Origin: a virus
UHGV virus genome: UHGV-0311028
DNA length: 19,774 nucleotides
Direction: 5' to 3' (one strand)
Below are positions 1,345 to 19,774 of the stretch, piece after piece. The notes under the pieces are model-generated. The model saw only the letters and a list, made by a program, of their open reading frames with translations. It was not told the origin of the DNA and did no database searches. The translations under genes were made by a program, and so were the position numbers. Each line of letters opens with the position of its first letter. Position 1 is the stretch's first letter.

Positions 1345-1373
1345 ATCTTATCCATATTTTTTGAAAAATGCAA
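1345..1373 (-). promoter_or_regulatory. Candidate late promoter (pR'-like) just downstream of Q
   Basis: On the minus strand: TTGCAT, a 17-bp spacer, then TAAGAT. Located between the Q stop (1405) and the tR'-like terminator, which is the lambdoid pR'-qut-tR' arrangement. Assigned by motif and position only. Confidence 0.35.
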
Positions 1374-1404
1374 GCTTCATGTCGCCATCTTCGGCGAAAA
1401 TCAC

Positions 1405-2157: not shown

Positions 2158-2170
2158 GCTCGTTCTCCAC

Positions 2171-3166: not shown

Positions 3167-3167
3167 C

Positions 3168-3965
3168 TCAATGAACGGTATCGAGCAGCTTTAACAGCTC
3201 AGGGAATCGGGATTCGAAGAAATGCGGCTGCGTCTCACGCGGATTTGCGGGACTGGTGATATTCTTGCCGAACATGCAGCCTTTCGCTGTCAGCGACCAG
3301 AATTTTTTGATGTTGTTAATCGCTGTACGGCTGTATCGTTCGCGCTGTTCGACGATCCCCAGCTTCGCCATCTGGTGATATGCCTGATTAGCCGTAAGGC
3401 GGATACCATACTGCTTCAGCAGTGCACTCAGTGACAGCGTGGGGCGGCTTGAGCCATCAGGCGCGTCAGCAGGAGCATCAATGGCATAGCGCGGTGCCAG
3501 ATTCGGTAAGCCAACAGCCTCCTGAAGTTTCTGACAGGCTCCAAGCACTGAAGAGTTAGACAGATTTAACTCCCGGCGCATAAAGTCCAGCAGAATCACA
3601 CCAGCCTGCATCTTGTCAGCAGCCTGTCCGGATAATTTTTCCGGTGCGCTGGTTACCATGTCGAAAGTACGGATCACCTTCAGATGGAATGACGGGCTGA
3701 TCCACATTGCATAGGCATACACCAGTTCTTTGCAGACATACGTCCCCTGGTTATTTCCGCCACGAATAACGTTAACTGGCTCTATATTGACCGAGTTGCA
3801 AATCTGCAACTCGCTTATTAAACGTTCAGTTTGCTCATTGCGGAGCCAGAATGCAGGCTTATGCTTATCCAGAGAACCGGCAGCCCTGTGCAGATCGTTC
3901 AGGCTGTAACGCCCATAAGCATCACGACGAACTTCAATACCATCAATGACCATCAGATTATTCAT
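3168..3965 (-). CDS. KilA-N domain protein (putative antirepressor/Bro-like)
   Basis: N-terminus MNNLMVIDGIEVRRDAYGRYSLNDLHRA...GTYVCKELVYAYAMWISPSFHLKVIRTFD has the KilA-N/Bro-N pattern. Strong SD AGAGGAGAA. Stop lies 1 nt from the next gene. Confidence 0.55.
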   Translation of the reverse strand: MNNLMVIDGIEVRRDAYGRYSLNDLHRAAGSLDKHKPAFWLRNEQTERLISELQICNSVNIEPVNVIRGGNNQGTYVCKELVYAYAMWISPSFHLKVIRTFDMVTSAPEKLSGQAADKMQAGVILLDFMRRELNLSNSSVLGACQKLQEAVGLPNLAPRYAIDAPADAPDGSSRPTLSLSALLKQYGIRLTANQAYHQMAKLGIVEQRERYSRTAINNIKKFWSLTAKGCMFGKNITSPANPRETQPHFFESRFPELLKLLDTVH

Positions 3966-3984
3966 ACTTCGTTTCTCCTCTTAA

Positions 3985-4374
3985 TCAGGCGGCTGCACCC
4001 GCCGTTTTCTCGAACTTACTGATAGTGATCTCGACCTTCCCTTTCGGGATAACCGGTCCCCACTCAACCAGCATTCTTTTCACCTGACTGTCGTCTTCCC
4101 ACACACCCGCGTGGGTCAGGGCGTCAAACAGCGCCTTGTTATAGTTGTCCAGATCGCTGATCCGGTTATCCGGAGGAAACAACACGATCTCCACTGCAGA
4201 AGGTGTCGACATTGGTTTCGGCAGACGACGTAACTGCTCAACTATTGCTGCGCACGCCGCGCTCTGGAATTTTCGCCCCGCCGCGCTTATCAGGCTCTTA
4301 CCTGCAAACGCCCCTTTGTTGGGGTGTCGCCAGTACGTGTTCACGCTGGGCGGAAAAGGCAGGATCAGCTTCAT
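3985..4374 (-). CDS. rusA: RusA-family Holliday junction resolvase
   Basis: 129-aa product MKLILPFPPSVNTYWRH...DLDNYNKALFDALTHAGVWEDDSQV has the conserved RusA pattern (PPS-N-Y motif and acidic catalytic residues). ATGA overlap with the upstream gene. Confidence 0.7.
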   Translation of the reverse strand: MKLILPFPPSVNTYWRHPNKGAFAGKSLISAAGRKFQSAACAAIVEQLRRLPKPMSTPSAVEIVLFPPDNRISDLDNYNKALFDALTHAGVWEDDSQVKRMLVEWGPVIPKGKVEITISKFEKTAGAAA

Positions 4375-4658
4375 GCTTTCAGGCCTCTCTCATGTAACCA
4401 GTGGGTTGCACGCAGCCTTGCGTTTTCCTCACCAGCAAGCAGTGAGCGGATAATCCCGACCGCCTCGCTGTCGTCGTCCTTCACCGCGGTATGAAGCGTT
4501 ATCCCCCGGGCCACGCCACGCTTTATCGTGATGACACCTTTTTTCTCCAGTGCGCGAAGATGCTCCACCGCTGCATTCACTGAACGGTATCCCAGCATGG
4601 TTGCCACCTCCTGATTGGTTGGCGGGAAACCACGTTCTTTCTGATAAGAAATCAGCAT
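4371..4658 (-). CDS. LexA-like winged-HTH DNA-binding protein lacking a peptidase domain; start ATG 4658 preferred over GTG 4667
   Basis: Product ...ISYQKERGFPPTNQEVATMLGYRSVNAAVEHLRALEKKGVITIKRGVARGITL aligns to the LexA N-terminal DNA-binding domain (...[36 protein letters not shown]...) from memory. No S24 domain follows. Confidence 0.5.
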   Translation of the reverse strand: MLISYQKERGFPPTNQEVATMLGYRSVNAAVEHLRALEKKGVITIKRGVARGITLHTAVKDDDSEAVGIIRSLLAGEENARLRATHWLHERGLKA

Positions 4659-4693
4659 ATCCAGCACCTGCTACTGGCATTGAGTTAACGTCG

Positions 4694-5347
4694 TCATGCC
4701 GCCATCTCCCTGACCAGTTTTTCTGCCTGCTGGCGAACCTGCGCCAGAAAGGCCTCACCACATGCCTCAAGTTCATCGCGCCCGATGTAGCTGATTGCCG
4801 CTCCCTTCCAGGTCTTGTCGAAAACAGCAATAGCACCAGCGAAGAAAGCGCCTGTCGGCACCTGCTTCTCGTCTTTCGGGATAAACCAGGCAGGCAGTTC
4901 AAAACCAATACGCCCGCGAATAAAAGCAATATGATCTGCATCTTCCGGCCACCACACTTCGCTGGTGGCAGCTTTGATCAGGAAAACATAGCGACCGCCT
5001 TTATCACGCATGGAACTGGCATGCTTCATTATGTAACGCATGCCAGTGATGTATTGCCCCTCATGCTGACTGGCGCGGCTGTATGGGGGATTACCAAAGG
5101 CAGCACCTTTAAGCTCCGCAAGACGTTCTGACCAGTCATGCGCCAGCGCATTGTCTTCCGCCGTGTAATACGCGGCACATTTGGCGTTATCACCGTCGGT
5201 GAACAGATCCAGAACAAACGGGCCAAACAGGGTGTTAATTCCCCAGAAAATGTTGTCCGGCGTGCGCCACTGATCGCCCACTTCCTTCAGTTCATGGGCT
5301 GGTTTGTTCCGCAGTTCCACCAGCGCCTGGCAATATTTATTACTCAT
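4694..5347 (-). CDS. Phage DNA N6-adenine methyltransferase (Dam-like)
   Basis: Contains the NPPY catalytic motif (AAFGNPPYSRA), typical of phage Dam N6-adenine methyltransferases. ATG at 5347-5345 with SD GTGGGGG, overlapping the upstream stop (TAATG). The ORF-track GTG start at 5380 is less likely. Confidence 0.65.
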   Translation of the reverse strand: MSNKYCQALVELRNKPAHELKEVGDQWRTPDNIFWGINTLFGPFVLDLFTDGDNAKCAAYYTAEDNALAHDWSERLAELKGAAFGNPPYSRASQHEGQYITGMRYIMKHASSMRDKGGRYVFLIKAATSEVWWPEDADHIAFIRGRIGFELPAWFIPKDEKQVPTGAFFAGAIAVFDKTWKGAAISYIGRDELEACGEAFLAQVRQQAEKLVREMAA

Positions 5348-5835
5348 TAAGCCCCCACGTAATTCCCTGACAGATACCACTCTTCACCCGATGCAGCGCG
5401 CTTGCTGCTTTTCCGTAAGCACCGCTCACGACGCGCCAGAAAATTGTTTCGTTCTGGCTGGGAGTGGCTTTCACGGAATGCCGCCATCCACACCGTTGCA
5501 GCACGACGGTATAAGCCCCTGGACTCCAGTTCTTCCGCCTGGCGGGTCAGGCACAAAATCTCCCGCGGGTCGTTAGTGCCGACATAGAAATTGCGCACAG
5601 GTCTGGTTTCACGAACTGGTTGCGGTTCCGCCTCCTGCGCTCTCTCAGTCAGACGCGGGAAATGTCTGCGTGTATCCCCTTCACAACGGTGAGCCACACG
5701 ACCACTCTGACGTAACTTGCTTGCTGACTGCAGAACGCGCTGCCGTGAGTAACCTGCAAAAGCATCCGCAATGTCTCCGGAAGTACACCCCGGATGGGCT
5801 TCAATGTATTTCTGAACTTCATTCAAAAGACTCAT
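5347..5835 (-). CDS. Putative transcriptional regulator (winged-helix N-terminus; PerC/ANR-like C-terminal motif); functional assignment tentative
   Basis: Translationally coupled to the replication initiator (GGGGGTGATCATG). C-terminal YRRAATVWMAAF...ERNNF...RRERC resembles PerC/ANR-type regulators as I recall them. It is not a recognisable helicase loader. Confidence 0.35.
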   Translation of the reverse strand: MSLLNEVQKYIEAHPGCTSGDIADAFAGYSRQRVLQSASKLRQSGRVAHRCEGDTRRHFPRLTERAQEAEPQPVRETRPVRNFYVGTNDPREILCLTRQAEELESRGLYRRAATVWMAAFRESHSQPERNNFLARRERCLRKSSKRAASGEEWYLSGNYVGA

Positions 5836-5837
5836 GA

Positions 5838-6779
5838 TCACCCCCTGAATCCTGCCGGGATCTGGCTGTAGTCCACGTTGTCGTAACTGGCTTTGAAGTA
5901 CGGGTCTTCGCGTTTTTCGGTGTACGTGCTGACGGACGGCGATAAGCGCAGGGAAAGCTCATCCCATTTTTCCCGCAGCTTCGACGGGCTGAGCACGTTA
6001 CGGCACCAGAACGGATCGCGGCTGACGCGGCTGTACATCTCGCAGATTTGTTTGTGAGTACGACCATCCTGCACACACATCAGGCGAATTTCGTTTGCCC
6101 AGGCTGTCCAGTTCGGTTCTTTGGGACGAACCACCTCGCCGTCACATTCGGCGGCTTGCTCGTACAGGGCGATGATTTTTTTCCAGAGCCACTGTGCGCA
6201 GGTCAAATCATCCTGCGTCCCCCACTGGCGCTTTTTAGGGCTGAATACAACCGCATCAGGATGGCGAGTTAAAAAATCCTGTTCAGCCTTCTGCGTGTCC
6301 GGTTGCGAAGCGTCCGGACGAGAAGTTTTTTTATCTGACGGATCATGTTTTGATTTTACTGACGGATCCCCGCCAGATTCTGACGGGTGAAAACCCGCTT
6401 TTTTGACAGATTTCGACGCATCAAATTTTGACGGGTCAGATTTTGATGCGTCAGATTTTGACGGGTCAGAATCTGACAGTTGAGAAAAAGCCGCAGCCTG
6501 AAGCTTCGCAACGTTAAGCTGATAAACATTCGACGCATTGCGGTTACCCTGGCGACGCGCCTTACGCGTTAACCAGCCTTCTGCTTCCAGCCGTGCGATA
6601 GCCGTTCTGACGGTACTCATCCCCGCGCCAATCTGGCGGGCAATGGTTTCAATTGATGGCCAGCACACACCTTCGTCATTACTGAAATCAGCCAGGCGTG
6701 CCATAATTGCCACGCTGGATAATTTCATGCCTGACGCTGCGCAACCATCCCATACATAGCCGGTTAATTTAGTGCTCAT
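5838..6779 (-). CDS. Replication initiator (O-like) with N-terminal winged-HTH; ori iterons embedded in the coding sequence
   Basis: N-terminal HTH (LSSVAIMARLADFSNDEGVCWPSIETIARQIGAGMSTVRTAIARLEAEGWL). The central region encodes the 5-aa periodic peptide DPSKSDASKSDPSKFDASKS from tandem 15-bp DNA repeats. SD AGAGGT before the ATG at 6779. Lies downstream of cro/CII-like genes as in the lambdoid cro-cII-O order. Confidence 0.6.
   Translation of the reverse strand: MSTKLTGYVWDGCAASGMKLSSVAIMARLADFSNDEGVCWPSIETIARQIGAGMSTVRTAIARLEAEGWLTRKARRQGNRNASNVYQLNVAKLQAAAFSQLSDSDPSKSDASKSDPSKFDASKSVKKAGFHPSESGGDPSVKSKHDPSDKKTSRPDASQPDTQKAEQDFLTRHPDAVVFSPKKRQWGTQDDLTCAQWLWKKIIALYEQAAECDGEVVRPKEPNWTAWANEIRLMCVQDGRTHKQICEMYSRVSRDPFWCRNVLSPSKLREKWDELSLRLSPSVSTYTEKREDPYFKASYDNVDYSQIPAGFRG
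6396..6485. repeat. Tandem 15-bp iterons (TTTTGACGGGTCAGA-type) = putative ori; further TCTGACGG motifs at 6335-6390; AT-rich stretch at about 6300-6330
   Basis: Read directly: 6426-6440 TTTTGACGGGTCAGA, 6441-6455 TTTTGATGCGTCAGA, 6456-6470 TTTTGACGGGTCAGA, with degenerate copies on both sides. Each unit contains an imperfect palindrome TGAC-GGG-TCA. Confidence 0.6.
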
Positions 6780-6788
6780 GACCGACCT

Positions 6789-7127
6789 CTATTTCCCTGA
6801 ATTTACGACGAAACTGTTCGAGCGGACTGAAGCATTCATGCTCATAGCCTTCGCGGAGGTAGATAACCCGTTGTGTTTCCGGCTCCCAACGAATGACTCT
6901 GACGGGTACTCCGTAGTGATCTTTGAACCAGCGGTTAACTTGTCGCAAAGGACTGTCTCCTTTTGCCGGTTAAAATCACCCACAGCCCACTCTGCAAAGC
7001 TGTGGGTTACAATTACCCTGCCACCTGGTACATTTACTGCATAGCAATACTCCACCTTCGCTTTTCCACCCGGTACAGGAAGCGCAATCAGTTGCGAGCG
7101 ACGGTAGTGTGTTGTTAAACTGTTCAT
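6789..7127 (-). CDS. Hypothetical protein (between the CII-like gene and the replication initiator)
   Basis: The ATG at 7127-7125 overlaps the stop of the upstream gene (ATGA coupling). Same strand as the whole operon. The competing plus-strand ORF 6772-7044 has no such support. Confidence 0.4.
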
Positions 7128-7693
7128 GCGTTAGTTTCTCCACAACCAGAAGCAATCGACGCCACGACGCCCGGAGCTGCACACTCGCGGGCGTCATTAC
7201 TTTCTGAAATGCAAAAAATTTTGTAGACAAGTGCTGCATGCTCCTGCAGCTTCGAAATTGAGAGATACAGCTCGTCGTTAATTGCTGTCTTCTCATGCGG
7301 TTCCACTACACCGTCTTCGATTGCTGAACGAATCTGTTTTGAATAACTGCCGATCTGTTCAATGACTTCCAGCAGACGCTGGTTAATATCGGCGTTGTCC
7401 ACATCCTCGACGTCAGGAAGAGACACAAAGACGCCATTTGCAGACTGCGCCACAGCATCAGCAATGAAGTGAGTGCCACCAGCACGCTGTAAAACCATTG
7501 CCCATCCCAGCGGGAAAATCTGATCGCCATCTGCACGAAGGCGGTTGAATAAAGCGTTTTCTGTTACATCGAGCCAGTCAGCCGCTTCAGCGTAACCACC
7601 CGGCAACGCCGCGATAGTTTTTCTGACAGCTTTCACGTACCACTCAGGCTGTTTTTCTATTTTCCAGTGATGCTTACCCACGATTAGCCTCAT
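7124..7693 (-). CDS. CII-like phage regulatory protein (CP76/YdaT family), tentative
   Basis: Segment [39 protein letters not shown] resembles the conserved core of phage 186 CII-type (CP76) regulators as recalled. Located immediately downstream of cro. Confidence 0.4.
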
Positions 7694-7724
7694 CGTTCTG
7701 TGGTTAAAAATTGAAAGTGTTCTG

Positions 7725-7925
7725 CTAATCTTTCGGATAGATATCCGGTCTTAAGTCAGATTTCGTAATTGCACCTGACGTGCATTGCTCAAGTTTTTTA
7801 GCCAGCACAAAACTGGCTTTTTTATAGCCATTGAAAACCAGCCGTAAGTAGCCAGGTGTTGAGCCAACTTTTCCGGCCAACTCGCCCTGCTGTTCTTTGG
7901 TTAAAGAGTCCCAATACGCTTTCAT
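7725..7925 (-). CDS. cro: Cro-like HTH repressor
   Basis: 66-aa product MKAYWDSLTKEQQGELAGKVGSTPGYLRLVFNGYKKASFVLAKKLEQCTSGAITKSDLRPDIYPKD with HTH character. Divergent from the CI gene across a 90-bp operator region. SD GGAGGT before the ATG at 7925-7923. The longer ORF to 8228 would run through the operators and the cI start. Confidence 0.6.
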   Translation of the reverse strand: MKAYWDSLTKEQQGELAGKVGSTPGYLRLVFNGYKKASFVLAKKLEQCTSGAITKSDLRPDIYPKD

Positions 7926-7930
7926 ACAAT

Positions 7931-8000
7931 ATGTACCTCCGATGTACATATTACATGATTGAAATGAACCTTCAAGATACTTGTACCTTAACGGTACAAG
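7931..8000. promoter_or_regulatory. Immunity operator/promoter region (oR-like) with two palindromic operator candidates sharing a TGTAC core
   Basis: 7931-7949 ATGTACCTCCGATGTACAT (8 of 9 symmetric positions) and 7980-8000 CTTGTACCTTAACGGTACAAG (9 of 10 symmetric). TTTAAT lies 7 nt before the cI ATG, suggesting a near-leaderless cI transcript as in lambda pRM. Confidence 0.5.
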
Positions 8001-8015
8001 GGTTTTAATTTCGTT

Positions 8016-8690
8016 ATGAAAACAATCCATGACATCCGGCGGTCTAACGCCAGAAAACTGAGAGATGGTGTTGGCGGGAATTCTTCCTTTGCCACTATGA
8101 TTGATCGCGAGCCAACCCAGACCAGCAGGTTTATGGGAGATGGTGCTACTAAAAATATCGGTGACAGCATGGCACGACACATCGAAAAATGTTTCGACCT
8201 GCCTGTCGGATGGCTCGATCAAGAACACCAGACAACGAACATCACAAAAAAACCTGATGTTTCAATCACTAATAAACAAATCACATTAGTCCCTGTCATA
8301 TCATGGGTACAGGCCGGAGCATGGAAAGAAGTTGGATATTCTGAGGTTGATTTGAGCACAGCAGAAACGTATCCCTGCCCTGTCCCCTGTGGGGAAATGA
8401 CTTATATCTTGCGGGTGATAGGTGATTCAATGATTGATGAGTACCGCCCGGGAGACATGATTTTTGTCGATCCTGAAGTACCTGCCTGCCACGGTGACGA
8501 CGTTATTGCATTGATGCACGATACAGGTGAAACCACCTTCAAAAGGTTGATAGAAGATGGGACACAGCGTTATCTCAAAGCGTTAAACCCAAACTGGCCT
8601 GAGCCTTACATTAAGATCAACGGTAATTGCTCTATAATTGGTACAGTGATTTTCTCAGGAAAACCAAGAAGATACAAAATCAAAGCCTAA
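8016..8690 (+). CDS. cI: CI-type prophage repressor with N-terminal HTH and C-terminal S24 (LexA-like) autopeptidase domain
   Basis: C-terminal RVIGDSMIDEYRPGDMIFVD...TFKRLIEDG carries the S24 Ser (GDSM) and Lys (KR) pattern. Divergent from cro. Followed by an intrinsic terminator. Confidence 0.85.
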   Translation: MKTIHDIRRSNARKLRDGVGGNSSFATMIDREPTQTSRFMGDGATKNIGDSMARHIEKCFDLPVGWLDQEHQTTNITKKPDVSITNKQITLVPVISWVQAGAWKEVGYSEVDLSTAETYPCPVPCGEMTYILRVIGDSMIDEYRPGDMIFVDPEVPACHGDDVIALMHDTGETTFKRLIEDGTQRYLKALNPNWPEPYIKINGNCSIIGTVIFSGKPRRYKIKA

Positions 8691-8702
8691 TCAATGTTTA
8701 TG

Positions 8703-8727
8703 AACCTGCTTCGGCAGGTTTTTTTAT
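8703..8727 (+). terminator. Rho-independent terminator after cI
   Basis: AACCTGC-TTCG-GCAGGTT hairpin followed by TTTTTTT. Confidence 0.65.
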
Positions 8728-8729
8728 AC

Positions 8730-8757
8730 TTGACAATGTACCTTTGAGATACATAAT
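8730..8757 (+). promoter_or_regulatory. Candidate rightward promoter (pL-like): TTGACA, 16-bp spacer, CATAAT, with a TGTACC operator-like motif in the spacer
   Basis: Read directly from the sequence. Position is immediately after the cI terminator, and the spacer motif matches the oR half-sites. Confidence 0.35.
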
Positions 8758-9179
8758 GTATCCAAGAGAAACAACAAACAGGCAGGACGTCCACGAAGTA
8801 GCCGCCTGGGGCATATGAAGTCCAAGATGATTCGTTAGCAACAAAACGCCCATAGGACGCTTCGCTCTTTAACAATTTGAATATTTTCAGCGTCAATGAT
8901 CTGTTTAGCTCCCTACAAGTAAATGTAGCGTAGCACCATGATAAATCCTGCTAGTGTTTAGTTAAAAATCGCGCGAGAGCAAGAACGACGTGAGGGCAGG
9001 CAATATTGATAGTGTTATTGCTATTAGTTTATCAAAAATATTTAGACGACCCAGATGAATATTTTTAATACATACTCCCCCTAATTTAACAGGAGTAAAT
9101 GTTGATGAATAACGAGACATCTATACTCAACAATTGTATGATATGAACAATTATATAACATAATGTAGGAAAAATAAAA

Positions 9180-9776
9180 ATGGATTGGCATGACCTTATA
9201 TCAAAGGTAATTATCGGACTTGTTACAGGCTCAATCGCAGCTTACTTAACTGCGCGATATGCACTCGGCCGTTATTATAAAGAAAAATGGTGGGACAAAA
9301 GAATAGATTTGTATACGCAATTAGTTGACTGTGTTTATCTTCTAAAAAACACAGCTGACTATTGGTATAAACATGAGTTACATCACGCTTCACAATTCCC
9401 AACCTACTTTAGTTACAAATCAAAAGAAGAAAATGAAATCCTTAGCAAATCTTTCTCTAATGAGCTTGAAAAACTCAGTAGAATAGGTGAGCTATCTTCA
9501 TTATTCTTAACAGAAGAGTGTGGGGATAAAATCCGTTCATTCATTGAAAATGAAGAAAATCTATTTATACAATGGGAGTTTGATAGTATAGAGTTGATAG
9601 ATGCCCACAAGTCAAGACTTGATAAATTAAAAGTATTACTAGACGATATTATCTCTGAAGCAAAGAGAGAGCTTAAGGTCAATAAAAAACATAACAGCCT
9701 AAAGAATATAAAGTGGTCCATAACTATGCCAGACCAAAAAAATGATGAGCCAATTAATTATTACGACAATCATTAA
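9180..9776 (+). CDS. Hypothetical membrane-anchored protein (AT-rich moron downstream of cI); possible superinfection-exclusion/abortive-infection function
   Basis: 198 aa with one N-terminal hydrophobic helix (VIIGLVTGSIAAYLTARYAL) and a charged, probably helical remainder. SD AGGA 8 nt before the ATG. Has its own terminator at 9787-9808. Strongly AT-rich. Confidence 0.6.
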   Translation: MDWHDLISKVIIGLVTGSIAAYLTARYALGRYYKEKWWDKRIDLYTQLVDCVYLLKNTADYWYKHELHHASQFPTYFSYKSKEENEILSKSFSNELEKLSRIGELSSLFLTEECGDKIRSFIENEENLFIQWEFDSIELIDAHKSRLDKLKVLLDDIISEAKRELKVNKKHNSLKNIKWSITMPDQKNDEPINYYDNH

Positions 9777-9786
9777 AACACTTTAG

Positions 9787-9808
9787 AACCCGCTGGGCGG
9801 GTTTTATT
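9787..9808 (+). terminator. Rho-independent terminator after the cI-proximal moron
   Basis: AACCCGC-TGG-GCGGGTT hairpin followed by TTTTATT. Confidence 0.6.
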
Positions 9809-10198
9809 CAAATATACTTTGCACATCACAAATAAAACTATAACGTCCTTCTTCTTTTCCTAATATCTTATATCTACTTATTTATAAGCGGCTTACAGAT
9901 CTTCAACAGATAAACCTAATGAAGGCGACAATGTTCTGATGAATAGCCACCTTTTTACTCAACTGAAAGCGCGTTCTGTCCCTTGTCATTAAGTGCCAGT
10001 TCGTTAAGTCCAAAACCTCCGGAACGCGCTTTCAATTGAGTGGGGAAAATAACTGGCGATGGCAGCCGCCCGTTGCACTAAGTGCCTCTGGATGGGGCAT
10101 TTACTGAAACGAAACCAAAACTTTTAATCGCCTTATGGCGAGGGATTCGTGCAACCAAAAATCGTGCGGTGCAGCGCACCAATTAAGGAGAACTAACG

Positions 10199-10735
10199 AT
10201 GAGTTTTATCCAGACTCTTACCGGTAAGAAGTTCAATTATATCAACTCCACCATTGACGATATTTATATCGAGGATATCGCCGGTGCGCTTTCAAATATC
10301 TGCCGCTTCGCGGGACACTTGCCGGATTTTTACAGCGTGGCGCAGCATTCCGTTCTGTGCAGTCAACTTGTGGCGCCAGAGTTCGCCTTTGAAGCGTTAA
10401 TGCATGATGCAACAGAAGCGTATTGTCAGGACATCCCCGCGCAACTGAAACGCCTTCTTCCTGACTATAAACGGATGGAAGAAAAAATAGACGCCGTAAT
10501 CCGTGAGAAATACGGGTTACCCCCGGTTATGAGCACGCCCGTGAAATATGCCGATCTCATCATGCTGGCAACCGAACGCCGCGATCTCGGGCTTGATGAT
10601 GGCTCTTTCTGGCCTCTACTGGAAGGTATCCCAGCAACAGAGATGTTCAAAGTTATTCCACTGTCGCCAGGCCATGCCTACGGGATGTTTATGGAACGTT
10701 TTAACGAGTTATCGGAGTTACGCAAATGCGCATGA
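10199..10735 (+). CDS. HD-domain phosphohydrolase (prophage early-left gene)
   Basis: H...HD...D arrangement (AQHSVLCSQL, ALMHDATEAY, DLIMLATERRDLG). SD AAGGAG. First gene after a roughly 400-bp leader. Confidence 0.55.
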   Translation: MSFIQTLTGKKFNYINSTIDDIYIEDIAGALSNICRFAGHLPDFYSVAQHSVLCSQLVAPEFAFEALMHDATEAYCQDIPAQLKRLLPDYKRMEEKIDAVIREKYGLPPVMSTPVKYADLIMLATERRDLGLDDGSFWPLLEGIPATEMFKVIPLSPGHAYGMFMERFNELSELRKCA

Positions 10736-11088
10736 ATGTTTTCGAAATGGAAGGGTTTCTTCGCGGGAAATGTGTACCGCGAGATCTGAAAGTGAATGAA
10801 ACGGATGCTGAATACCTGGTGCGTAAATTCGATGCGCTTGAAGCTAAATGTGCGGCACTGGAAAACAAAGTAATACCAGTGTCAACTGAACTGCCACCAG
10901 CAAATGAAAGTGTTTTGTTATTCGATGCTAACGGAGAAGGCTGGCTAATTGGCTGGCGTTCTCTCTGGTACACCTGGGGACAAAAAGAAACCGGAGACTG
11001 GCAGTGGACATTTCAGGTCGGGGACCTTGAAAACGTCAATATCACTCACTGGGCAGTAATGCCAAAAGCACCGGAGGCTGGAGCATAA
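10726..11088 (+). CDS. Hypothetical protein (possible DUF551-like C-terminus)
   Basis: ORF with SD GGAG, overlapping the upstream stop by 10 nt. W-rich C-terminus (GWLIGWRSLWYTWGQKETGDWQWTF). Confidence 0.45.
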   Translation: MRMNVFEMEGFLRGKCVPRDLKVNETDAEYLVRKFDALEAKCAALENKVIPVSTELPPANESVLLFDANGEGWLIGWRSLWYTWGQKETGDWQWTFQVGDLENVNITHWAVMPKAPEAGA

Positions 11089-11393
11089 TGACCACTTTTA
11101 CCGACAAAGAACTGATTAAAGAAATCAAAGAGCGTATCAGCAGCCTTGACGTGCGAGACGATATTGAGCGCCGTGCTTATGAAATCGCACTCCTATCTCT
11201 GGAAGTAGAGCCAGATGAACGCGAATCCTATGAATTATTTATGGAAAAACGTTTCGGTGGCTTAGTAGATAGTCGGAGAGCAAAAAACGGCGATAACGAA
11301 TACATGGCATGGGATATGACTCTCGGTTGGATCGTCTGGCAACAACGAGCTGGCATTCATTTTTCAACAATATCACAGCAAGAGGTGAAATAA
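11088..11393 (+). CDS. Hypothetical protein
   Basis: TAATG overlap with the upstream gene; SD GGAGG. No recognised motif. Confidence 0.45.
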   Translation: MTTFTDKELIKEIKERISSLDVRDDIERRAYEIALLSLEVEPDERESYELFMEKRFGGLVDSRRAKNGDNEYMAWDMTLGWIVWQQRAGIHFSTISQQEVK

Positions 11394-11743
11394 TGGAACC
11401 ATACAGCCTCACGCTAGATGAGGCCTGTCATTTTCTCAAGATATCCAGACCGACTGCCATTAACTGGATACGCACAGGGCGTCTGCAGGCAACACGCAAA
11501 GATCCCACTAAGAATAAATCTCCTTACCTCACAACACGACAAGCCTGCATTGCGGCGCTTCAGTCTCCGCTGCATACTGTCCAGGTGAGCGCGGGTGATG
11601 GCATAACAGAGGAAAGAAAATGTCACTCTTCCGCAGAGGTGAAATATGGTACGCCAGTTTCACATTGCCGAACGGTAAAAGATTTAAACAGTCTCTTGGA
11701 ACAAAGGACAAAAGGCAGGCGACAGAACTCCATGACAAGCTAA
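11393..11743 (+). CDS. xis: Excisionase (Xis, HTH_17/AlpA-like); 3' end overlaps int and may be shorter than the ORF
   Basis: [37 protein letters not shown] is a typical excisionase/AlpA-type HTH. ATG at 11393 with SD AGAGGTGA and TAATG coupling. Directly upstream of int. Confidence 0.6.
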
Positions 11744-12783
11744 AGGCTGAAGCATGGCGGGTCAGCAAACTTGGTGAAATTCCTGATATAACGTTCGAGG
11801 AAGCGTGTGTCAGGTGGCTTGAAGAGAAAGCACATAAAAAATCACTGGACGATGACAAAAGCCGGATCGGATTCTGGCTTCAACATTTCGCAGGAATGCA
11901 ACTAAGAGACATTACTGAATCAAAAATTTATTCAGCAATGCAGAAAATGACGAACCGGCGTCATGAGGAAAACTGGAAACTCAGGGCAGAAGCATGCAGA
12001 AAAAAAGGGAAACCTGTTCCAGAATACACGCCAAAACCAGCGTCCGTTGCAACGAAGGCTACGCATCTTTCATTTATAAAGGCCCTGCTAAGAGCCGCAG
12101 AGCGTGAATGGAAAATGCTGGATAAGGCACCAATTATTAAAGTGCCTCAACCAAAGAATAAACGGATCCGCTGGCTGGAGCCTCATGAAGCACAAAGGCT
12201 GATTGATGAATGTCCGGAGCCATTAAAGTCTGTTGTTGAATTTGCACTTGCAACAGGCTTAAGACGCTCGAACATCATCAACCTTGAATGGCAACAAATA
12301 GACATGCAGCGCCGGGTGGCATGGATAAACCCGGAAGAGAGTAAATCAAACCGCGCAATTGGCGTTGCGCTGAATGATACTGCATGTCGCGTATTGAAAA
12401 AACAAATCGGGAATCATCACCGTTGGGTATTTGTGTATAAGGAAAGCTGTACCAAACCAGACGGAACGAAAGCGCCAACAGTCAGGAAGATGCGGTATGA
12501 CGCAAACACAGCCTGGAAAGCGGCGCTGAGACGAGCAGGTATTGATGATTTCAGATTTCACGACTTGAGACACACCTGGGCAAGTTGGCTGGTTCAAGCC
12601 GGAGTCCCGTTATCAGTGTTACAGGAAATGGGAGGCTGGGAGTCTATCGAAATGGTTCGTCGATATGCTCACCTCGCACCTAATCACCTTACCGAACACG
12701 CACGGCAAATAGACTCGATTCTGAACCCATCGGTCCCAAATTTGTCCCAGTCAAGAAATAAGGAAGGTACTAATGATGTGTAA
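11620..12783 (+). CDS. int: Tyrosine integrase, P22 Int / DLP12 IntD family
   Basis: 387 aa. N-terminus [34 protein letters not shown] and C-terminal catalytic region [39 protein letters not shown] (R...H-x-x-R...Y) match P22-type integrases from memory. SD AGAGGAAAG. Ends 15 bp from the tRNA-derived att core. Confidence 0.9.
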
Positions 12784-12797
12784 CTTATTGATTTAAA

Positions 12798-12843
12798 TGG
12801 TGCCGATAATAGGAGTCGAACCTACGACCTTCGCATTACGAAT
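12798..12843 (-). other. Attachment-site core: 46 nt identical to the 3' end of a tRNA-Thr(CGU) gene (thrW-type), anticodon loop to CCA; not an intact tRNA
   Basis: The reverse complement reads ATTCGTAATGCGAAGGTCGTAGGTTCGACTCCTATTATCGGCACCA: anticodon CGT, T-arm GGTTCGACTCC, acceptor 3' strand and CCA. The 5' half of the tRNA is absent (the sequence continues tataagaatcc...). Confidence 0.8.
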
Positions 12844-12908
12844 TATAAGAATCCGCTTCTAATTCAAAGCATTACCCCATCAACACTGCGCTCACACGTC
12901 CCACCACA

Positions 12909-13043
12909 TCAAAACATGTAAAGCCTTGCAAGCCATTGTGAGGCCTTATGTGTCTCAGTTTTGTCCCACCTTGTATTACGACTTGCATAGCCAATGAAGA
13001 TCAACGTGACGACAAACGGCGCAGCAGTCTTCTTTTCCTTCAT
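12909..13043 (-). CDS. Possible small ORF (44 aa, hydrophobic core), below the ORF-track cutoff; speculative
   Basis: ATG at 13043-13041 preceded by a purine-rich tract GGGGAAGGGGAAGGGAAAGT. Product MKEKKTAAPFVVTLIFIGYASRNTRWDKTETHKASQWLARLYMF. No homology recognised. Confidence 0.2.
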   Translation of the reverse strand: MKEKKTAAPFVVTLIFIGYASRNTRWDKTETHKASQWLARLYMF

Positions 13044-13233
13044 ACTTTCCCTTCCCCTTCCCCACCATGCATACTTTTCTGCCATAACTAAAGTGAATGC
13101 CTGTTATAAGCAATAAACAGGCATTAGCGCCGCTAGCATATTAGCTACCATTCGACTGCCACACTTAAGATTGATTTCTTAAGTATAACCCGGTTTCTAA
13201 TACTACTTATATATTCAGCTCTGAGATTCATTT

Positions 13234-16200
13234 TTATCTCGTAAAATTAGTTTTATGACTTCCTGTTAGCTGACTGTCTTCATAATAAAATGCCCCACTA
13301 AACTCCTGTCGACCATAATGATGACTTGATGTGAGTGAGCCCCCTATAACATCTTTTTCACCTAATAATGTCCAAACGATTTCAAAACCATTTTCCCTTA
13401 ACATTGTTAAAAATGGTTCTTTTTTAACAAGTAGATACGGCTTTGAAGCATATACAGCTTCAGCTGCAAAGCAAACCATAGTTCCATTTTCATCATTGAA
13501 GCTACCCTCTACTTCCCCATTTTTTAAGCCCATCTTTTCAAAGATTAAGTTGCTAGGCTTCAAAAAATTCAAAGCTTCTATTTTTGATTTGTCGAACTCC
13601 TCTCCCCACAAATAATTAATCGAAGTGACACTAACATCAGCTATCTTAGCTCCAGACTCCCGGTCTGTTACCGAAGTCCAGTCAGAACCAGCATAATAAT
13701 CTGATTTAAAAGACTTAAATGCTTCGGACCAATAGTACTCCCTATTAAATAATTGGTATCTATCAGTACCTTCCGGCATCCACCTGCCCATAAAGTCTTG
13801 AGCTATTGCCCAACATCTAAAATTTTCAAATTCTTCAACTTTAACGATATAACTTCTGATCTGATACCAAACCTCTTTTCGTGGGTGCCCCCAATCATCG
13901 TTTCCAATAATTTTTGGTTCTTTCCATGATGGATAACTTTCTAATACTATCCATTCATCACCATTATCATCTTTAACTTCAATCAAAGCATATGGATTAG
14001 TTATAGTAGTAGAGCTTTGAACCCAGTCTTCATTAGAGCAAGTCCAATCAAACACTTCATCATTAAACCACCACATTTCTTTATTGCTTATTTTTTTCGT
14101 CCCAGTTTCTTTAAGTAAGATAGTGGGATCTATATCTCTTACGTAAGGCTCCCATGGCCCTTGGTATGGGTTTTCCTTTCGGTCGTCACCATAACCTTCA
14201 AAATGAATAAAATTATCGGCTAGCCTTGCCATGTATTCATAATAAGCAATCCATTGGTATTTTTTACCAATCCGTTCTTGGAATTCCTCTCTACGTCCAC
14301 GTCCAGTTCCTATTTGTTGGTCAAAATCACCATGCTTCTCCGGATCCCAACCAAGATCCAGAACACGATTGAATATAAATTGTTGAGCTAGTCGAAGATC
14401 AAAGTGTTTATCAGTTTCCAGCAGATTATTATTATGATCTAGGTATGGCTCTATTTCATTTTCAAACTCACTTAACAGATCGTATGACAATGAATTCTTA
14501 AATAGCTTCTTGCTCGCCTTTATTTCTTCCTGTGTTTTTCTACCGACCACGCTACCCAATTTAATACCTTCACATTTATCATCATAAATGAAAGGATCTG
14601 TGGCATCATATAAATCTTTTTGTTGATCAGTTAGTTTACATTTGAAAGTTTTAAAAACTCGCTTACGGTCAACAGGGGTTTCATTAAACTTGCAACCAGA
14701 CCAATCAGAATGATTATAATTTGTTCCAATAGTATATCGTGAAAAGTCACCACCTTCCATAATCGAGCTCCAGAGTTCCCGATAAGGTTCTTTATCATAA
14801 AGGGACTCTAGTTCCTCTTTTGAAGGAATCTTGTCAGGCCAAATGCTGTTGTAGGGTGGTCTAGTCTTGGATAATTCAATGCTTTCAAGTTCCAATCCAA
14901 GATGATTAGCAAATTCAATAATCTCTCTAGCATAATCTCTAAGTAATATATTTGGATACACATACTCAGAACAAAATACCTTTTGGTAAACAGTTTCGGC
15001 TAAATATTTTAGTTCTTTAATATTATCAGTTCGCAATGTACAACCCAATGCAACTGCAAATATTCTTTCCCAAACGTAAGGATCATTTACACCATAAAAC
15101 TTATCAATTATTTTTCTCAATACAGGAATTCTTGGCTCGAGTAAACTCACTAAAGCCTTGGTTGAGCAATCTCGAAGTTCTCGGTTACTAGAAGTTAAAA
15201 ACCAGCATAAACTAGTTGCAACTAGCTCGATTGACTCATCCGAAACGAAGCTTTTATCTGTTCTGCCCCATGCCCAATCGATTAGATGCCTAAATGCTGA
15301 GTCTTCACTATATTTATATTTAAGTTTTGTAGTCCAACACGAATCTCGATTTCCCAAAGAGTAATCTTTTAGCCAATCATGCAAAAAATTAGCATTAAAG
15401 GGATGGTCAACTAAACCTGAAATAGAGATCACTGCCTCGAGAAAATGATCAAAACTACCTTTAAATTTAAAAACATGTTCATTGATGAAAGGTCTGATTT
15501 TTTCGAAATCAATAGCCTTAATATCTCGCCATATCAAGCTATCAATAAAGGCTTCTAGTAATTTATGATTATTGCTGAACTCCGGCAGAAATTCATAAAG
15601 CTCTTTTCCATACTTTTCTGGCAATTGAATAGAAAGCGCCTCAACTATTCCCGAGTTTGTATAAAAATCACATTCATCATGAAAATATTTTTTCAGACAA
15701 CCATCTGACTTAAATTCATTTTCGATATTTTCAACATCATTTAATAAAAAATTAACAGTTAAATGATCATCAAACCTTTCAAAAGCCACATGAACTACTT
15801 CCTCAGTAGCATTATCATTATTTCTCACTATGCCTTTAGTCAATAATCCTTCGTCAATCAAGGCGCTGAGGAAATTTTTATCTGTAACATAATCATTAAC
15901 TACAGATTGAACCACTGAGTGAGCATCTCTAAGTGAAATACTATTACTACCAATCTCTAATTTGAATTTTATGATTTCGTTGAGAGCATCTTTTACAAGA
16001 GGAAAACTGGGATCGAAATCATATTTTCTTGGCGATGCCAATGATTTATTCACCCCTTCCACTAAAAAGTTAAAAATATTTGAAATCCCATTAAACCCAA
16101 CAGGTACTTTGGTTAAACCATTTTTCTTAATGCCTTCACACAATAACTTAAGAAATAGAGGGTTTTTAAACTCTGGATTAAGATTCGGTGATGAAGGCCT

Positions 16201-17688
16201 CTCTATATTGTAATAATCATAAAATAGACTAACCGCTTCTAACTCAACATTCTGAAATCCAATATGTTCATGAATTTCAAAATTATTTCGCTCAACATTC
16301 TCATGTGAAATTGTTACATTTCTATATGTTGTTCTGACTGACATTATCAGACCAAGCCATTCAAAGCATCTGATTTCATCGACAAAACTGTTAATATTGT
16401 CATTCCAGAATTTATTTCCATTACCTTCATTAATAGCATCAATGAAAACCAAGACTCTTTTTCCTGTTTTTTTGCCATATAAATTCAGTTTTTCCAGGAA
16501 TTCACGAGAAGTGATTTTAAGCTGTAATCTCTTGAAGATCTGTGACCATGGAGATTCATCTGAAGTAAGTTGTTGCCCTAGTATGAGTAGAGAAGGATAT
16601 CCAGAAGCAATTCGATTTTTAATCACATCAGCCAGTAAATGAGACTTACCAATTCCAGCTTTTCCTTCGAGAAGTAAGAATGGGTTGTTAGCCAACTTTA
16701 CTGTTGTTGAATTAATGAATGTACGTAATTCATTGCACGCATAGTCAAGTTCCCGAAGCATTCGCAGAGTAGATGAATACTTATCACTGTAATGCTTGGT
16801 TTCACCTACTTGTTCTGACTTTTCTCGGAGTTCCCACAATATTGATTCCGCTCCGCCAATAGCTGTCTGGCAGCTGTCAACATAGTTATTAAATTTATTT
16901 ATAGGAATTTGATCTAATTTAGAAAAATTAAGCCCTTGATATATATCCGCAATTTGATTTAAGGACTCGTCTATTACAGATAATTCTGAGTAAATTACAT
17001 CGCAACTATGTAACCTCTTTCTAGTCATCAGAAAATTATCTATATGTGAGTAAAATATTTTAGCAAAATCATCAGTTCTACCGAGACCATCAAATATCTC
17101 TGCTATTTCTAGCTTTACGTTGAGTTCGGGTGTGTATCGGCCTCCCAAGTCAGCTATTGCTTGACTATTTTTTTCATTTAACCAATCATCACTCAAGTGA
17201 AAAGTTAGTTTCTCATCTATAGACCGCAAAATAAGTTTAACTTGAATAAGCTCTTCATTAATATCGAATATTTTTTCTTTATACGTTTCTTCGATATGTA
17301 GCTTTTTTAACTTCGAACAATTATTGATTTTTAACGATAACATCTCATAAAAAAGGCTGAGTTGTTGTTGAGTTGGGGGGGTGATGCTTGGATATTCTTT
17401 GAACTTGTCTAATAATATCCCTTTGTCAGGAAACTCTTTAAACAAGATGTGTTCATTCAACATCTCAAACAATGGTTCAGAATGATAAAATGGAATTGCT
17501 CCACTTTCTACTGGATATGTTTCTTCAAACTCAATTGCCGTCTCTTCAATTAGTTGATATAATCTATCCACATATCTTTTTTGGGGGAATAATGCTTTCT
17601 TAATACAACCATATCCTTCTTGAGAGATGAATTGATCAATAAGTTTAGTTGCTACATAAGTTGCCACTGTAATTGATATAAGTTCCAT
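13234..17688 (-). CDS. Large P-loop NTPase with NACHT/STAND-like motifs (1484 aa); candidate antiphage defence protein; N- and C-terminal domains unassigned
   Basis: Uninterrupted 4455-nt ORF. ATG at 17688-17686 with upstream GGAAGAAG. Walker A GKAGIGKS (aa 342-349, nt 16642-16665), Walker B-like VLVFIDAINE (aa 412-421) and a sensor-1-like LIMSVRTT (aa 447-454). Strongly AT-rich relative to int and pin. Plus-strand ORFs inside it are short shadows. Confidence 0.85.
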   Translation of the reverse strand: MELISITVATYVATKLIDQFISQEGYGCIKKALFPQKRYVDRLYQLIEETAIEFEETYPVESGAIPFYHSEPLFEMLNEHILFKEFPDKGILLDKFKEYPSITPPTQQQLSLFYEMLSLKINNCSKLKKLHIEETYKEKIFDINEELIQVKLILRSIDEKLTFHLSDDWLNEKNSQAIADLGGRYTPELNVKLEIAEIFDGLGRTDDFAKIFYSHIDNFLMTRKRLHSCDVIYSELSVIDESLNQIADIYQGLNFSKLDQIPINKFNNYVDSCQTAIGGAESILWELREKSEQVGETKHYSDKYSSTLRMLRELDYACNELRTFINSTTVKLANNPFLLLEGKAGIGKSHLLADVIKNRIASGYPSLLILGQQLTSDESPWSQIFKRLQLKITSREFLEKLNLYGKKTGKRVLVFIDAINEGNGNKFWNDNINSFVDEIRCFEWLGLIMSVRTTYRNVTISHENVERNNFEIHEHIGFQNVELEAVSLFYDYYNIERPSSPNLNPEFKNPLFLKLLCEGIKKNGLTKVPVGFNGISNIFNFLVEGVNKSLASPRKYDFDPSFPLVKDALNEIIKFKLEIGSNSISLRDAHSVVQSVVNDYVTDKNFLSALIDEGLLTKGIVRNNDNATEEVVHVAFERFDDHLTVNFLLNDVENIENEFKSDGCLKKYFHDECDFYTNSGIVEALSIQLPEKYGKELYEFLPEFSNNHKLLEAFIDSLIWRDIKAIDFEKIRPFINEHVFKFKGSFDHFLEAVISISGLVDHPFNANFLHDWLKDYSLGNRDSCWTTKLKYKYSEDSAFRHLIDWAWGRTDKSFVSDESIELVATSLCWFLTSSNRELRDCSTKALVSLLEPRIPVLRKIIDKFYGVNDPYVWERIFAVALGCTLRTDNIKELKYLAETVYQKVFCSEYVYPNILLRDYAREIIEFANHLGLELESIELSKTRPPYNSIWPDKIPSKEELESLYDKEPYRELWSSIMEGGDFSRYTIGTNYNHSDWSGCKFNETPVDRKRVFKTFKCKLTDQQKDLYDATDPFIYDDKCEGIKLGSVVGRKTQEEIKASKKLFKNSLSYDLLSEFENEIEPYLDHNNNLLETDKHFDLRLAQQFIFNRVLDLGWDPEKHGDFDQQIGTGRGRREEFQERIGKKYQWIAYYEYMARLADNFIHFEGYGDDRKENPYQGPWEPYVRDIDPTILLKETGTKKISNKEMWWFNDEVFDWTCSNEDWVQSSTTITNPYALIEVKDDNGDEWIVLESYPSWKEPKIIGNDDWGHPRKEVWYQIRSYIVKVEEFENFRCWAIAQDFMGRWMPEGTDRYQLFNREYYWSEAFKSFKSDYYAGSDWTSVTDRESGAKIADVSVTSINYLWGEEFDKSKIEALNFLKPSNLIFEKMGLKNGEVEGSFNDENGTMVCFAAEAVYASKPYLLVKKEPFLTMLRENGFEIVWTLLGEKDVIGGSLTSSHHYGRQEFSGAFYYEDSQLTGSHKTNFTR

Positions 17689-18210
17689 GGTTAGCTTCTT
17701 CCAATAATTAAAATTTTACAAAGCGTTTATGCCTTACAATATGTATTGTATCTCACCGTAAAACATATTTATATGGTTTTAAACCTATCTGTAAATCTTG
17801 ACACCTTGGCAAGAACCTAATCCTACATTTTAATATCAGTCTATATAATATAGCCAGTGTCATAATAATCGGGCTTATCATAGTTAAGTATTCGCCTCCG
17901 ATATCCCAATGAGATAAGTAAGTCATCAGTGTTATAAATGAAAAGATCACATTTTTCAAAGAGTTATTATGATGGAATATTATTCAAAACGCAATGTAGC
18001 TGAAACGAGTCTGAGTTTAACATCCGCTCCTAGTACATAGTAGTCCCAGGGACAGTGGCGTAAAGTCATAGATGGCCGGTGGGAGGTGGTGGAAATCCTC
18101 TCATGCAAAAAATACATAAAATCGATAACGGCTGGAAATCATTCAATACTCGCACTATCGAAAGTTCACCAGCCAACCGCGCACGATCTTGCATACGACA
18201 TGCTACGGTT

Positions 18211-18765
18211 TCATTTATCTCCGACCGGAAACTTCTTATACAGTGTCGATATACCAACATCATAGATGATCGCCACCTTCTGGCGAGGAACGCCTGATGC
18301 AATTAATCGCCCGGCCTGCGCCCATTGTTCTGGTGTAAGTTTGGGACGACGTCCACCAATTCGTCCCTGTGCGCGAGCAGCTTCCAGTCCAGCTTTTGTT
18401 CGTTCAACAATCAGTTCTCGTTCCATTTCAGCCAAGGCCCCCATCACATGAAAGAAAAAACGCCCCATTGGTGTGCTGGTATCAATTGAATCCGTCAGAC
18501 TACGAAAGTTGATGCCTCGTTCGCGCAACTCCTCCACCAACACGACAAGATGCCGCATACTACGCCCCAGCCGATCCAGCTTCCAGACAACCAGAGTGTC
18601 ACCTGCCGATAATGTCCTGAGCAGTTTTTTCAGTCCCGGCCTTTCGGACTTTGTGCCGCTTATCTTGTCTTCAAAAATCAGCTCGCATCCTGCACAGTTC
18701 AGCGCATTACGTTGTAGATCTGTGTTCTGGTCATTTGTTGATACGCGTACATAGCCAATAAGCAT
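18211..18765 (-). CDS. pin: Serine DNA invertase, Pin/Gin/Hin/Cin family
   Basis: MLIGYVRVSTNDQNTDLQRNALN...DRLGRS... carries the resolvase/invertase catalytic serine motif (YVRVST) and a C-terminal HTH, and matches Pin of e14 from memory. SD GGGGGA before the ATG at 18765-18763. The ORF-track start at 18801 adds 12 unlikely residues. Confidence 0.9.
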   Translation of the reverse strand: MLIGYVRVSTNDQNTDLQRNALNCAGCELIFEDKISGTKSERPGLKKLLRTLSAGDTLVVWKLDRLGRSMRHLVVLVEELRERGINFRSLTDSIDTSTPMGRFFFHVMGALAEMERELIVERTKAGLEAARAQGRIGGRRPKLTPEQWAQAGRLIASGVPRQKVAIIYDVGISTLYKKFPVGDK

Positions 18766-18819
18766 GGTAGATCCCCCTGACAAAAGCAGGAATGATGCCA
18801 TTTGCTCGTTATTTCTGCA

Positions 18820-18845
18820 TTTTCATAAACGTTGGTTTGGGAGAA
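18820..18845. other. Candidate invertase crossover site (pix/gix-like), TTTTCATAAACGTTGGTTTGGGAGAA
   Basis: Imperfect dyad with AAAC / GGTTT half-sites resembling the gix/hix consensus (TTATCCAAAACC..GGTTT..GATAA) as recalled. Located between the pin 5' end and the start of the tail-fibre variable exon, as in Mu gixR. Confidence 0.45.
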
Positions 18846-19313
18846 GGCTCTGCATTACCTGTTGGTGTGCCTGTTCCATGGCCTTCAGCCACACCGCCAA
18901 CAGGCTGGCTGAAATGCAACGGTGCGGCTTTTTCTGCTGAAGAATACCCGGAACTGGCAAAGGCTTATCCGACAAATAAATTGCCTGATTTACGTGGTGA
19001 GTTTATTCGTGGCTGGGATGACGGGCGCGGTATTGATGCAGGACGTGTTTTATTGAGCATTCAGACAGGGATGCTGGAAAAACACCGCCATATTGTTGTT
19101 GCCAATGATGGTTACGACACAAAAGATGAATGGGAACTGGCTACGATTTTCAAAAAAACATACACACAAGGACGGGGACTTGATGCCACAAATACAGGAG
19201 GGAGTCTGATCCCATCACCGACACTTCATTCACGAGGGAGTATCGGTAATACTGGCGGGAGTGAAACCCGTCCACGAAATATTGCATTTAACTATATCGT
19301 GAGGGCTGCATAA
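18846..19313 (+). CDS. Tail-fibre protein C-terminal variable exon (alternative, currently pin-proximal and unlinked to a constant 5' part in this window)
   Basis: LPVGVPVPWPSATPPTGWLKCNGAAFSAEEYPELAKAYPTNKLPDLRGEFIRGWDDGRGIDAGR is the conserved C-terminal motif of Mu S / P2 H / e14 StfE-type tail fibres. No credible start of its own: the ORF-track start at 18792 lies upstream of the crossover site. Confidence 0.65.
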   Translation, partial: GSALPVGVPVPWPSATPPTGWLKCNGAAFSAEEYPELAKAYPTNKLPDLRGEFIRGWDDGRGIDAGRVLLSIQTGMLEKHRHIVVANDGYDTKDEWELATIFKKTYTQGRGLDATNTGGSLIPSPTLHSRGSIGNTGGSETRPRNIAFNYIVRAA

Positions 19314-19774
19314 TGGATAACGCCGTATTAAATAGCGAGCTTATTGCCACGAAGGCGGGGAATATTACCGTCTATAACTATGATGGTAAAACTCGGGAAT
19401 ATATTTCTACTTCAAATGAATATCTTGCCATTGGTGTCGGTATCCCTGCATATTCCTGTCTGGATGAACCTGGTATACATAAGGCGGGTTATGCTATCTG
19501 CCGTTCGATGGATTTAAACTCATGGGAATATGTGCCAGACCATCGCGGTGAAATCGTCTATAACACCGAAACGGGAGACGCCAAAGAAATCACAGCTCCG
19601 GGTGATTATCCTGAAAATACAACCACTATCGCCCCGTTAACGCCATTCGATAAATGGGATGGTAAGAAATGGGTGACCGATACTGAGGCACAGCATAGCG
19701 CCGCAGTAGACGCGGCAGAAGTACAGCGTCAGTCACTGATTAATACTGCAATGGCTTCCATTAGTCTGATTCAA
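19313..19774 (+). CDS. tfa: Tail-fibre assembly protein (Tfa/U'-type), 3'-partial (runs off the window end)
   Basis: ATG at 19313 overlaps the stop of the tail-fibre exon (TAATG). Product MDNAVLNSELIATKAGNITVYNYDGK...PDHRGEIVYNTETGDAKEITAPGDYPENTT...KWDGKKWVTDTEAQ... matches the Tfa family pattern (DHRG..VY, PEN.T, W.G..WV.DTEA). Not in the ORF track because no stop occurs in the window. Confidence 0.75.
   Translation, partial: MDNAVLNSELIATKAGNITVYNYDGKTREYISTSNEYLAIGVGIPAYSCLDEPGIHKAGYAICRSMDLNSWEYVPDHRGEIVYNTETGDAKEITAPGDYPENTTTIAPLTPFDKWDGKKWVTDTEAQHSAAVDAAEVQRQSLINTAMASISLIQ

Follow-up and report, generated by a model that had tools for sequence, protein, structure and literature searches.

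The thrW site, its core, the integrase and its target are textbook matters for P22 and for the Shigella serotype-converting phages. The 46-nt attP core was printed in the SfI paper, where it was defined by PCR and sequencing of attP, attB, attL and attR and was stated to be identical in SfII, SfV, SfX and P22 (PMC3636060), and the SfIV paper agrees on it (PMC3851460). The GenBank record of SfI carries an annotated 'attP core' 14 nt past int, followed by gtrA, gtrB, gtrI and the tail-fibre genes, and in the record of the P22-like phage L the homologous position bears the annotations 'P22 attP site' and 'tRNA-like fragment'. Here we analysed a stretch of 19,774 nucleotides from the virus genome UHGV-0311028, the whole of which we call the window, in which an initial annotation had pointed out the 3' end of a tRNA-Thr gene with phage-like DNA on both of its sides. 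We conclude, with a probability of about 0.9, that this 46-nt fragment is the attP core of a temperate phage of the SfV/SfII/SfIV type that integrates into thrW, a finding that belongs to the already known biology of the P22/SfV family of thrW att-int systems and is in this sense ordinary. The full attP extends approximately from 12733 to 12968; its short arm lies within the 3' end of int, and past the 46-nt core comes a long arm, about 125 bp in length, towards the cargo (Table 1).

Table 1. Features of the attP region and of the genes that flank it, in window coordinates.
Feature	Position	Strand	Basis or content
Excisionase (xis-like HTH protein)	11393-11743	plus	Pfam HTH_17, E = 3e-8
Tyrosine integrase, SfV/P22 lineage	11620-12783	plus	Pfam Phage_integrase, E = 3e-48
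Int-side arm (P'-like, short)	12733-12797	plus	GTCCCA at 12733 and 12744; candidate IHF site
attP core	12798-12843	minus	thrW 3'-terminal 46 nt, tRNA-Thr(CGU); shared with attB; predicted strand-exchange segment
Cargo-side arm (P-like, long)	12844-12968	plus	GTCCCA at 12898 and 12963; GTCTCA at 12952
Avs2 (AVAST type 2 STAND NTPase), anti-phage defence	13234-17688	minus	PADLOC Avs2, 1748.9 bits
Pin-type serine DNA invertase	18211-18801	minus	Pfam Resolvase and HTH_7
Tail-fibre C-terminal cassette	18792-19313	plus	Pfam Collar domain; within the invertible segment

The reverse complement of the core (12798-12843, minus strand, TGGTGCCGATAATAGGAGTCGAACCTACGACCTTCGCATTACGAAT) is identical at 46 of 46 positions to positions 31-76 of thrW, the reference being the RefSeq-annotated tRNA-Thr beside proA in two E. 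coli chromosomes, and the description of the fragment as the 3' portion of a tRNA-Thr(CGU) gene in reverse complement is thus borne out. The match starts at the last base of the 5' strand of the anticodon stem and runs through the anticodon loop with its CGT, the variable loop, the T arm and the 3' acceptor strand to the terminal ACCA, and the number of such matches expected by chance (approximately 2 x 19774 x 4^-46) is negligible. The 5' half of the tRNA is indeed missing, as had been claimed: the 5' 30 nt of thrW are absent beside the core, ARAGORN found 0 tRNA genes in the window, Rfam at gathering score found no tRNA in it, and a permissive Rfam scan yielded 14.2 bits for the tRNA model over 12801-12884 against the 29 that are needed (E = 3.4). 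On these three results any tRNA on the right of the core, complete or degenerate, is rejected, and so is a functional tRNA gene, the fragment being without the 5' acceptor strand and D arm of a complete cloverleaf. A variant of the core occurs at locus L013 and in strain EC21Z-144 (locus L010), where T>G at 12810 and A>C at 12824 change both sides of one T-stem base pair from A-T to G-C. This compensatory change suggests that the variant copy descends from a different functional tRNA-Thr allele and, if the variant came from the target side, the exchange at these two attL-type junctions would have occurred to the right of 12824.

Judged by alignment, both flanks of the core are phage attP arms, homologous to those of experimentally defined attP sites. 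Identity to SfI, SfII and SfV amounts to 97-98% in the int-side arm, 100% in the core and 96-97% in the cargo-side arm, and falls to about 41% in the next 42 nt (12969-13010), so that the similarity to the Sf phages stops sharply at 12968-12969. Aligning the flanks to P22-type attP arms had been proposed by the initial annotation as a check, and both do align to those of phage L (77% on the int side, 74% on the cargo side, with 100% in the core and 43% in the 42 nt beyond). A megablast search of the region 11600-14600 against phage genomes aligned it to SfIV, SfII, SfV and SfI at 98-99%, with P22-like phages reaching about 80%, from int across the core as far as 12968-12969.

Four copies of GTCCCA, all on the plus strand, lie within these 236 nt where 0.08 would be expected (Poisson P = 1.8e-6), the whole window holding 11 occurrences on both strands; the two int-side copies are in tandem, 11 bp apart, within the 3' end of int, and all four are unchanged in the phage L alignment. 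One of the five matches to the IHF consensus WATCAANNNNTTR in the window, AATCAATAAGTTA on the minus strand at 12781-12793, falls between the stop codon of int and the core, and phage L retains the consensus at the equivalent position. By analogy with lambda and P22, and because the GTCCCA copies are repeated and conserved, we regard them as candidate arm-type Int sites, and the match at 12781-12793 as a candidate IHF site. The P arm also holds, downstream of int, two overlapping terminator-like hairpins (12923-12957, plus strand) that are partly kept in phage L and are joined to int only in the attP configuration; speculatively, they could work like lambda sib in retroregulation. A short repeat of CCCTT/CCCCTT lies between attP and Avs2 at 13046-13068, with three more units at locus L001, just upstream of an unannotated ORF of 44 codons on the minus strand (13043 to 12909, MKEKKTAAPFVVTLIFIGY...) that has a hydrophobic N-terminus and extends into the P arm.

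The genes around the site follow the order lysis, Q, replication, cro/cI, xis, int, attP, cargo, pin and tail fibre, which is the non-integrated (vegetative) order of the phage, and it is because of this order that phage DNA stands on both sides of the core. The xis gene, whose mechanical ORF covers 11309-11743 with a RefSeq-style start at about 11393, overlaps the start of int with its end, and its homologues are annotated as excisionase in SfIV, SfII, SfV and SfI. With its RefSeq-style start at 11665 the integrase has 372 amino acids; at the DNA level it shares 98.8% identity with SfIV int and about 80% with P22 int, and its stop codon precedes the core by 14 nt, in keeping with the claim that the integrase ends just left of the fragment. 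The claim that the right side is not host DNA holds as well, since what follows the core is phage arm DNA, Avs2 (named avs2 by RefSeq at L001 and L003), pin and tail-fibre genes. The stretch 12797-18845 is 100.000% identical to and colinear with a prophage end in GCA_048126865.1 (locus L011), and 18827-19774 is 99.9% identical to the same locus (7009-8862) but inverted. The pin crossover site AAACGTTGGTTTGGGAGAA at 18827-18845 marks the edge of the invertible tail-fibre segment, inside which the window ends, and the cassette in it matches the tail-fibre genes of L001, P2, HK97 and similar phages.

The junctions of such prophages were surveyed in complete E. coli genomes, 5,426 in number. In at least 13 chromosomes the match to 178-12843 (99.4%) stops exactly at the end of the core and gives way to the 5' half of thrW and proA, as in strain 0H26, where thrW is completed past the core and is followed by proA and proB. 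The identical 372-aa Int adjoins an intact thrW in many chromosomes: among the eight distinct contexts returned for this protein, Aldedh (proA) was the next gene in six, all six with a full thrW, and the exact-protein look-up gave mostly simple lysogens. Other chromosomes match rightwards from 12780 or 12797 through the P arm and Avs2, and there the core follows host genes (L003, L013) or P4-like islands (L011, L012, L014). Both junctions occur on one partly degraded prophage in strain EC25, which reads paoD, core, P arm, Avs2 and onwards to int, thrW and proA; the window is the map of an EC25-type prophage permuted at the core, and therefore it contains attP by definition. The rule stated by the initial annotation, that the int-proximal junction of a simple lysogen has the complete tRNA, proved true in every one examined (L002, L003, L016-L019, L021 and L022). 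The arrangement seen here is no anomaly and is the normal appearance of attP.

What all junctions have in common is the 46-nt segment. The 18 bp at 12780-12797 are shared with some host junctions (L003, L013), which raises the identity there to 64 bp (12780-12843), but not with the junctions of P4-like islands, and they were rejected as part of a universal core. An exact pattern of 85 nt comprising the int-side arm, the core and the P arm was found at five loci in IMG/VR (SfV, SfII and three others), 0 times in the GTDB species genomes and 0 times in the JGI metagenomes. The exact Avs2 protein was found on nine contigs, none of them (0/9) with an SfV-type int beside it, and in the phage, plasmid and complete E. 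coli collections no record reached a coverage of 80% of the window. Other observations were made at these loci: at L020 and L023 other elements follow the same int past a truncated core of 17-19 nt, the P4-like satellites beside the Avs2 end (L011, L012, L014) carry two reverse-transcriptase genes, and EC21Z-144 holds a 204-nt remnant of int together with a reverse transcriptase and AbiE.

The site with its core and both arms thus lies beside int and xis, and its attL and attR products occur in many genomes; the steps that would connect them we infer from the lambda/P22 paradigm. The heterobivalent tyrosine integrase would use one domain to bind the GTCCCA motifs of the arms and its other domain to bind the core, IHF would bend the arm DNA, and strand exchange within the 46-nt identity with chromosomal thrW would insert the phage. 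The 46 nt brought by the phage would then rebuild the 3' part of the tRNA beside int, and a tRNA-less copy of the core would remain beside the cargo. Xis would drive the reverse reaction, excision.

The left edge of the window shows an oddity. The endolysin gene is split: the plus strand at 3-177 codes for residues 92-150 and the minus strand, from 440 to 178, for residues 1-88, so that the last 177 nt are flipped, and about 10 nt are missing between the two pieces. The flipped piece (1-177) is 88-91% identical to relatives, against 99.4% for the adjoining 12.6 kb (178-12843); the 177/178 joint was present in no complete E. coli genome, an exact-protein look-up of the chimeric endolysin ORF specific to the window found none on record, and a fold-back origin of the flipped 177 nt was rejected. 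Either an artefact of the contig end or a private rearrangement may lie behind it; if the joint were real, the phage would make no endolysin and would not be viable as it stands. The start of the window coincides with the end of the flipped piece and its right end falls in the pin-invertible segment, which suggests that the window represents a complete contig that is bounded by repeats and has an artefact at its terminus.

Which physical molecule the window represents can be weighed from the same data. We favour, with some reserve, the reading that it is one copy of the genome running through attP, coming from a virion, from circular or excised DNA or from a prophage circularised in silico. 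The initial annotation had leaned towards a single lambdoid genome read through attP, and this gains support from the map layout of SfI and phage L with their identical published core, from a 44.8-kb circular record with the same order of int, att, Avs2, pin and tail fibre, and from the EC25 prophage, which is the same genome permuted at the core. It had also named tandem and second-element configurations, and both are real at thrW elsewhere. A thrW (poly)lysogen in which the same or closely related SfV-type phages stand head-to-tail would have at its inner junction the very sequence of attP, and nothing in the window contradicts it. A true tandem is known from the chromosome of E. coli ET201, which reads int, core, P arm, cargo and tail genes on to portal, with one and the same portal protein (WP_000466250.1) bounding a stretch of 40 kb on both sides, and thrW arrays in general are common (EC21Z-144, the P4-like satellites, L020, L023). 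Against this, an attP-like chromosomal junction appears in only 2-3 of the 5426 complete genomes, the window has one copy of the core, no duplicated phage genes and no host junction, and, if the window is a whole short-read contig, the three core contexts of a tandem would be expected to break the assembly at the core, as happens in Logan contig L015. We consider a tandem origin rather doubtful.

That two unrelated elements, lodged at thrW one after the other, supplied the stretch from lysis to int on the left and the block of Avs2, pin and tail fibre on the right is far less probable still, even if heterologous arrays exist there: in EC21Z-144 the int fragment, reverse transcriptase and AbiE stand beside the end of a lambda-tailed prophage, P4-like satellites adjoin the same Avs2 end at L011, L012 and L014, and other elements follow int at L020 and L023. 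The left half (lysis, Q, DUF968, KilA-N, RusA, replication, cro/cI, xis and int) aligns to SfV at 95.6% identity, covering 47% of the window, and its nearest relative, the 0H26 prophage (99.4%), has at its far end pinE, an invertible segment with the tail fibre and a baseplate of the Mu type, an architecture that the right side of the window shares. Both halves therefore match one phage type, which combines lambdoid early genes with a Mu-like contractile tail and integrates into thrW, and this makes an array of two unrelated elements unlikely. In addition, SfIV matches pieces of the window from 178 to 19773, the right arm is the P arm that belongs to this family of integrases, and EC25 and pCE-O153H30-A each hold this type of integrase and the Avs2 end in one element, although the early regions of both differ from that of the window. 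Improbable too, if slightly less so, is that the joint of int, core and P arm was made by an assembler or scaffolder joining attR and attL, or by an annotator circularising the sequence in silico. The SfI and SfIV records were themselves made by joining prophage ends at the 46-bp att site (PMC3636060, PMC3851460), so that an attP-form database sequence need not be one sequenced molecule; the flipped left-edge piece suggests an imperfect assembly, and the identity with some host junctions reaches 64 bp. However, a repeat of 46-64 bp is shorter than normal reads and large assembly k-mers, and the product of such a join would anyway equal the true attP formed at excision. That the fragment resembles a tRNA by chance or is the decayed pseudogene of a host tRNA, for which only the absence of a complete tRNA speaks, has a probability close to nil in view of the full identity to thrW and the annotated attP position in related phages, and it is refuted by lysogen junctions that break at the edges of the fragment.

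The place next to attP is a slot for cargo (moron) genes, occupied here by Avs2 and in the Sf phages by the gtrABC serotype-conversion cassette. Between the last repeat of the attP arm and the pin/tail-fibre block (12969-18200) the relatives are variable: SfI has gtrABC, L001, L003 and L011 have Avs2 as the window does, ET201 a DUF262 protein, EC21Z-144 a type II restriction-modification pair with a diguanylate cyclase, and 0H26 hypothetical proteins with a GIY-YIG protein. The slot may alternate between the receptor-modifying gtrABC of the Sf phages and P22 and genes for intracellular defence (Avs2, DUF262, type II restriction-modification). Whether the slot beyond 12968 is a cassette-exchange point throughout the thrW phages, with the window being non-integrated DNA or a polylysogen and no simple lysogen, we judge to be an evenly balanced matter. 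For annotation, the analysis fixes the ends of the phage at 12798-12843, the joint where the map of the lysogen permutes, and places Avs2 as phage cargo in a slot that elsewhere holds genes for O-antigen modification.

Among the records compared, the dilysogen of ET201 (NZ_CP100994.1) has the same junction of int, core and P arm in its chromosome (97.7% over 311 bp) but, unlike the window, it has the portal gene on both sides, DUF262 as cargo and many frameshifts in the record. The 44.8-kb circular 'plasmid' pCE-O153H30-A (NZ_CP172337.1, locus L001) is a whole phage genome with the same int, Avs2, pin and tail-fibre block at 97-98%, contiguous through the att region; it differs in a lambda-like early region (O/P, red genes) and in lacking about 130 bp of the att region (window 12824-12953; 38900-38950 in L001), that is, half the core and most of the P arm. 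Its assembly as a plasmid would make sense for an integration-defective phage that was kept or captured as an episome. Another 'plasmid' of 43.7 kb, NZ_CP081704.1, is an episomal e14/SfV-like phage with a different integrase and was set aside as uninformative for the thrW att site.

The attP of lambda has the form P-O-P' over some 240 bp, with arm-type sites, IHF and Xis; its long arm is on the cargo side and its short arm, with tandem arm-type repeats, lies beside int, whose 3' end adjoins the site and whose gene is overlapped by xis. The attP of the window would share this logic, with a 46-nt tRNA 3' end as core in place of the 15-bp gal-bio core of lambda, and the likeness is one of layout only, the two having no sequence similarity. 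P22, phage L and ST64T are closer, with the same 46-nt thrW core, int and arms homologous at about 74-80%, and the GTCCCA motifs and IHF consensus kept in these relatives, but their virion is that of a podovirus and their sequence has diverged, unlike the phage of the window. Phage L has an annotated 'tRNA-like fragment' of 81 nt, whereas beyond its core the window scores 14 bits against the tRNA model. Closest of all are SfI, SfII, SfIV and SfV, in which the core is identical, int has 98-99% DNA identity and the arms 96-98%, and which have the same order of xis, int, core, cargo and tail fibre, lambdoid early genes and a Mu-like tail. The Sf phages carry gtrA, gtrB and a type-specific gtr in the cargo slot, oriented away from attP, whereas the window carries Avs2, oriented towards attP, and the pin invertase, and the cargo is the only difference from the described Sf phages.
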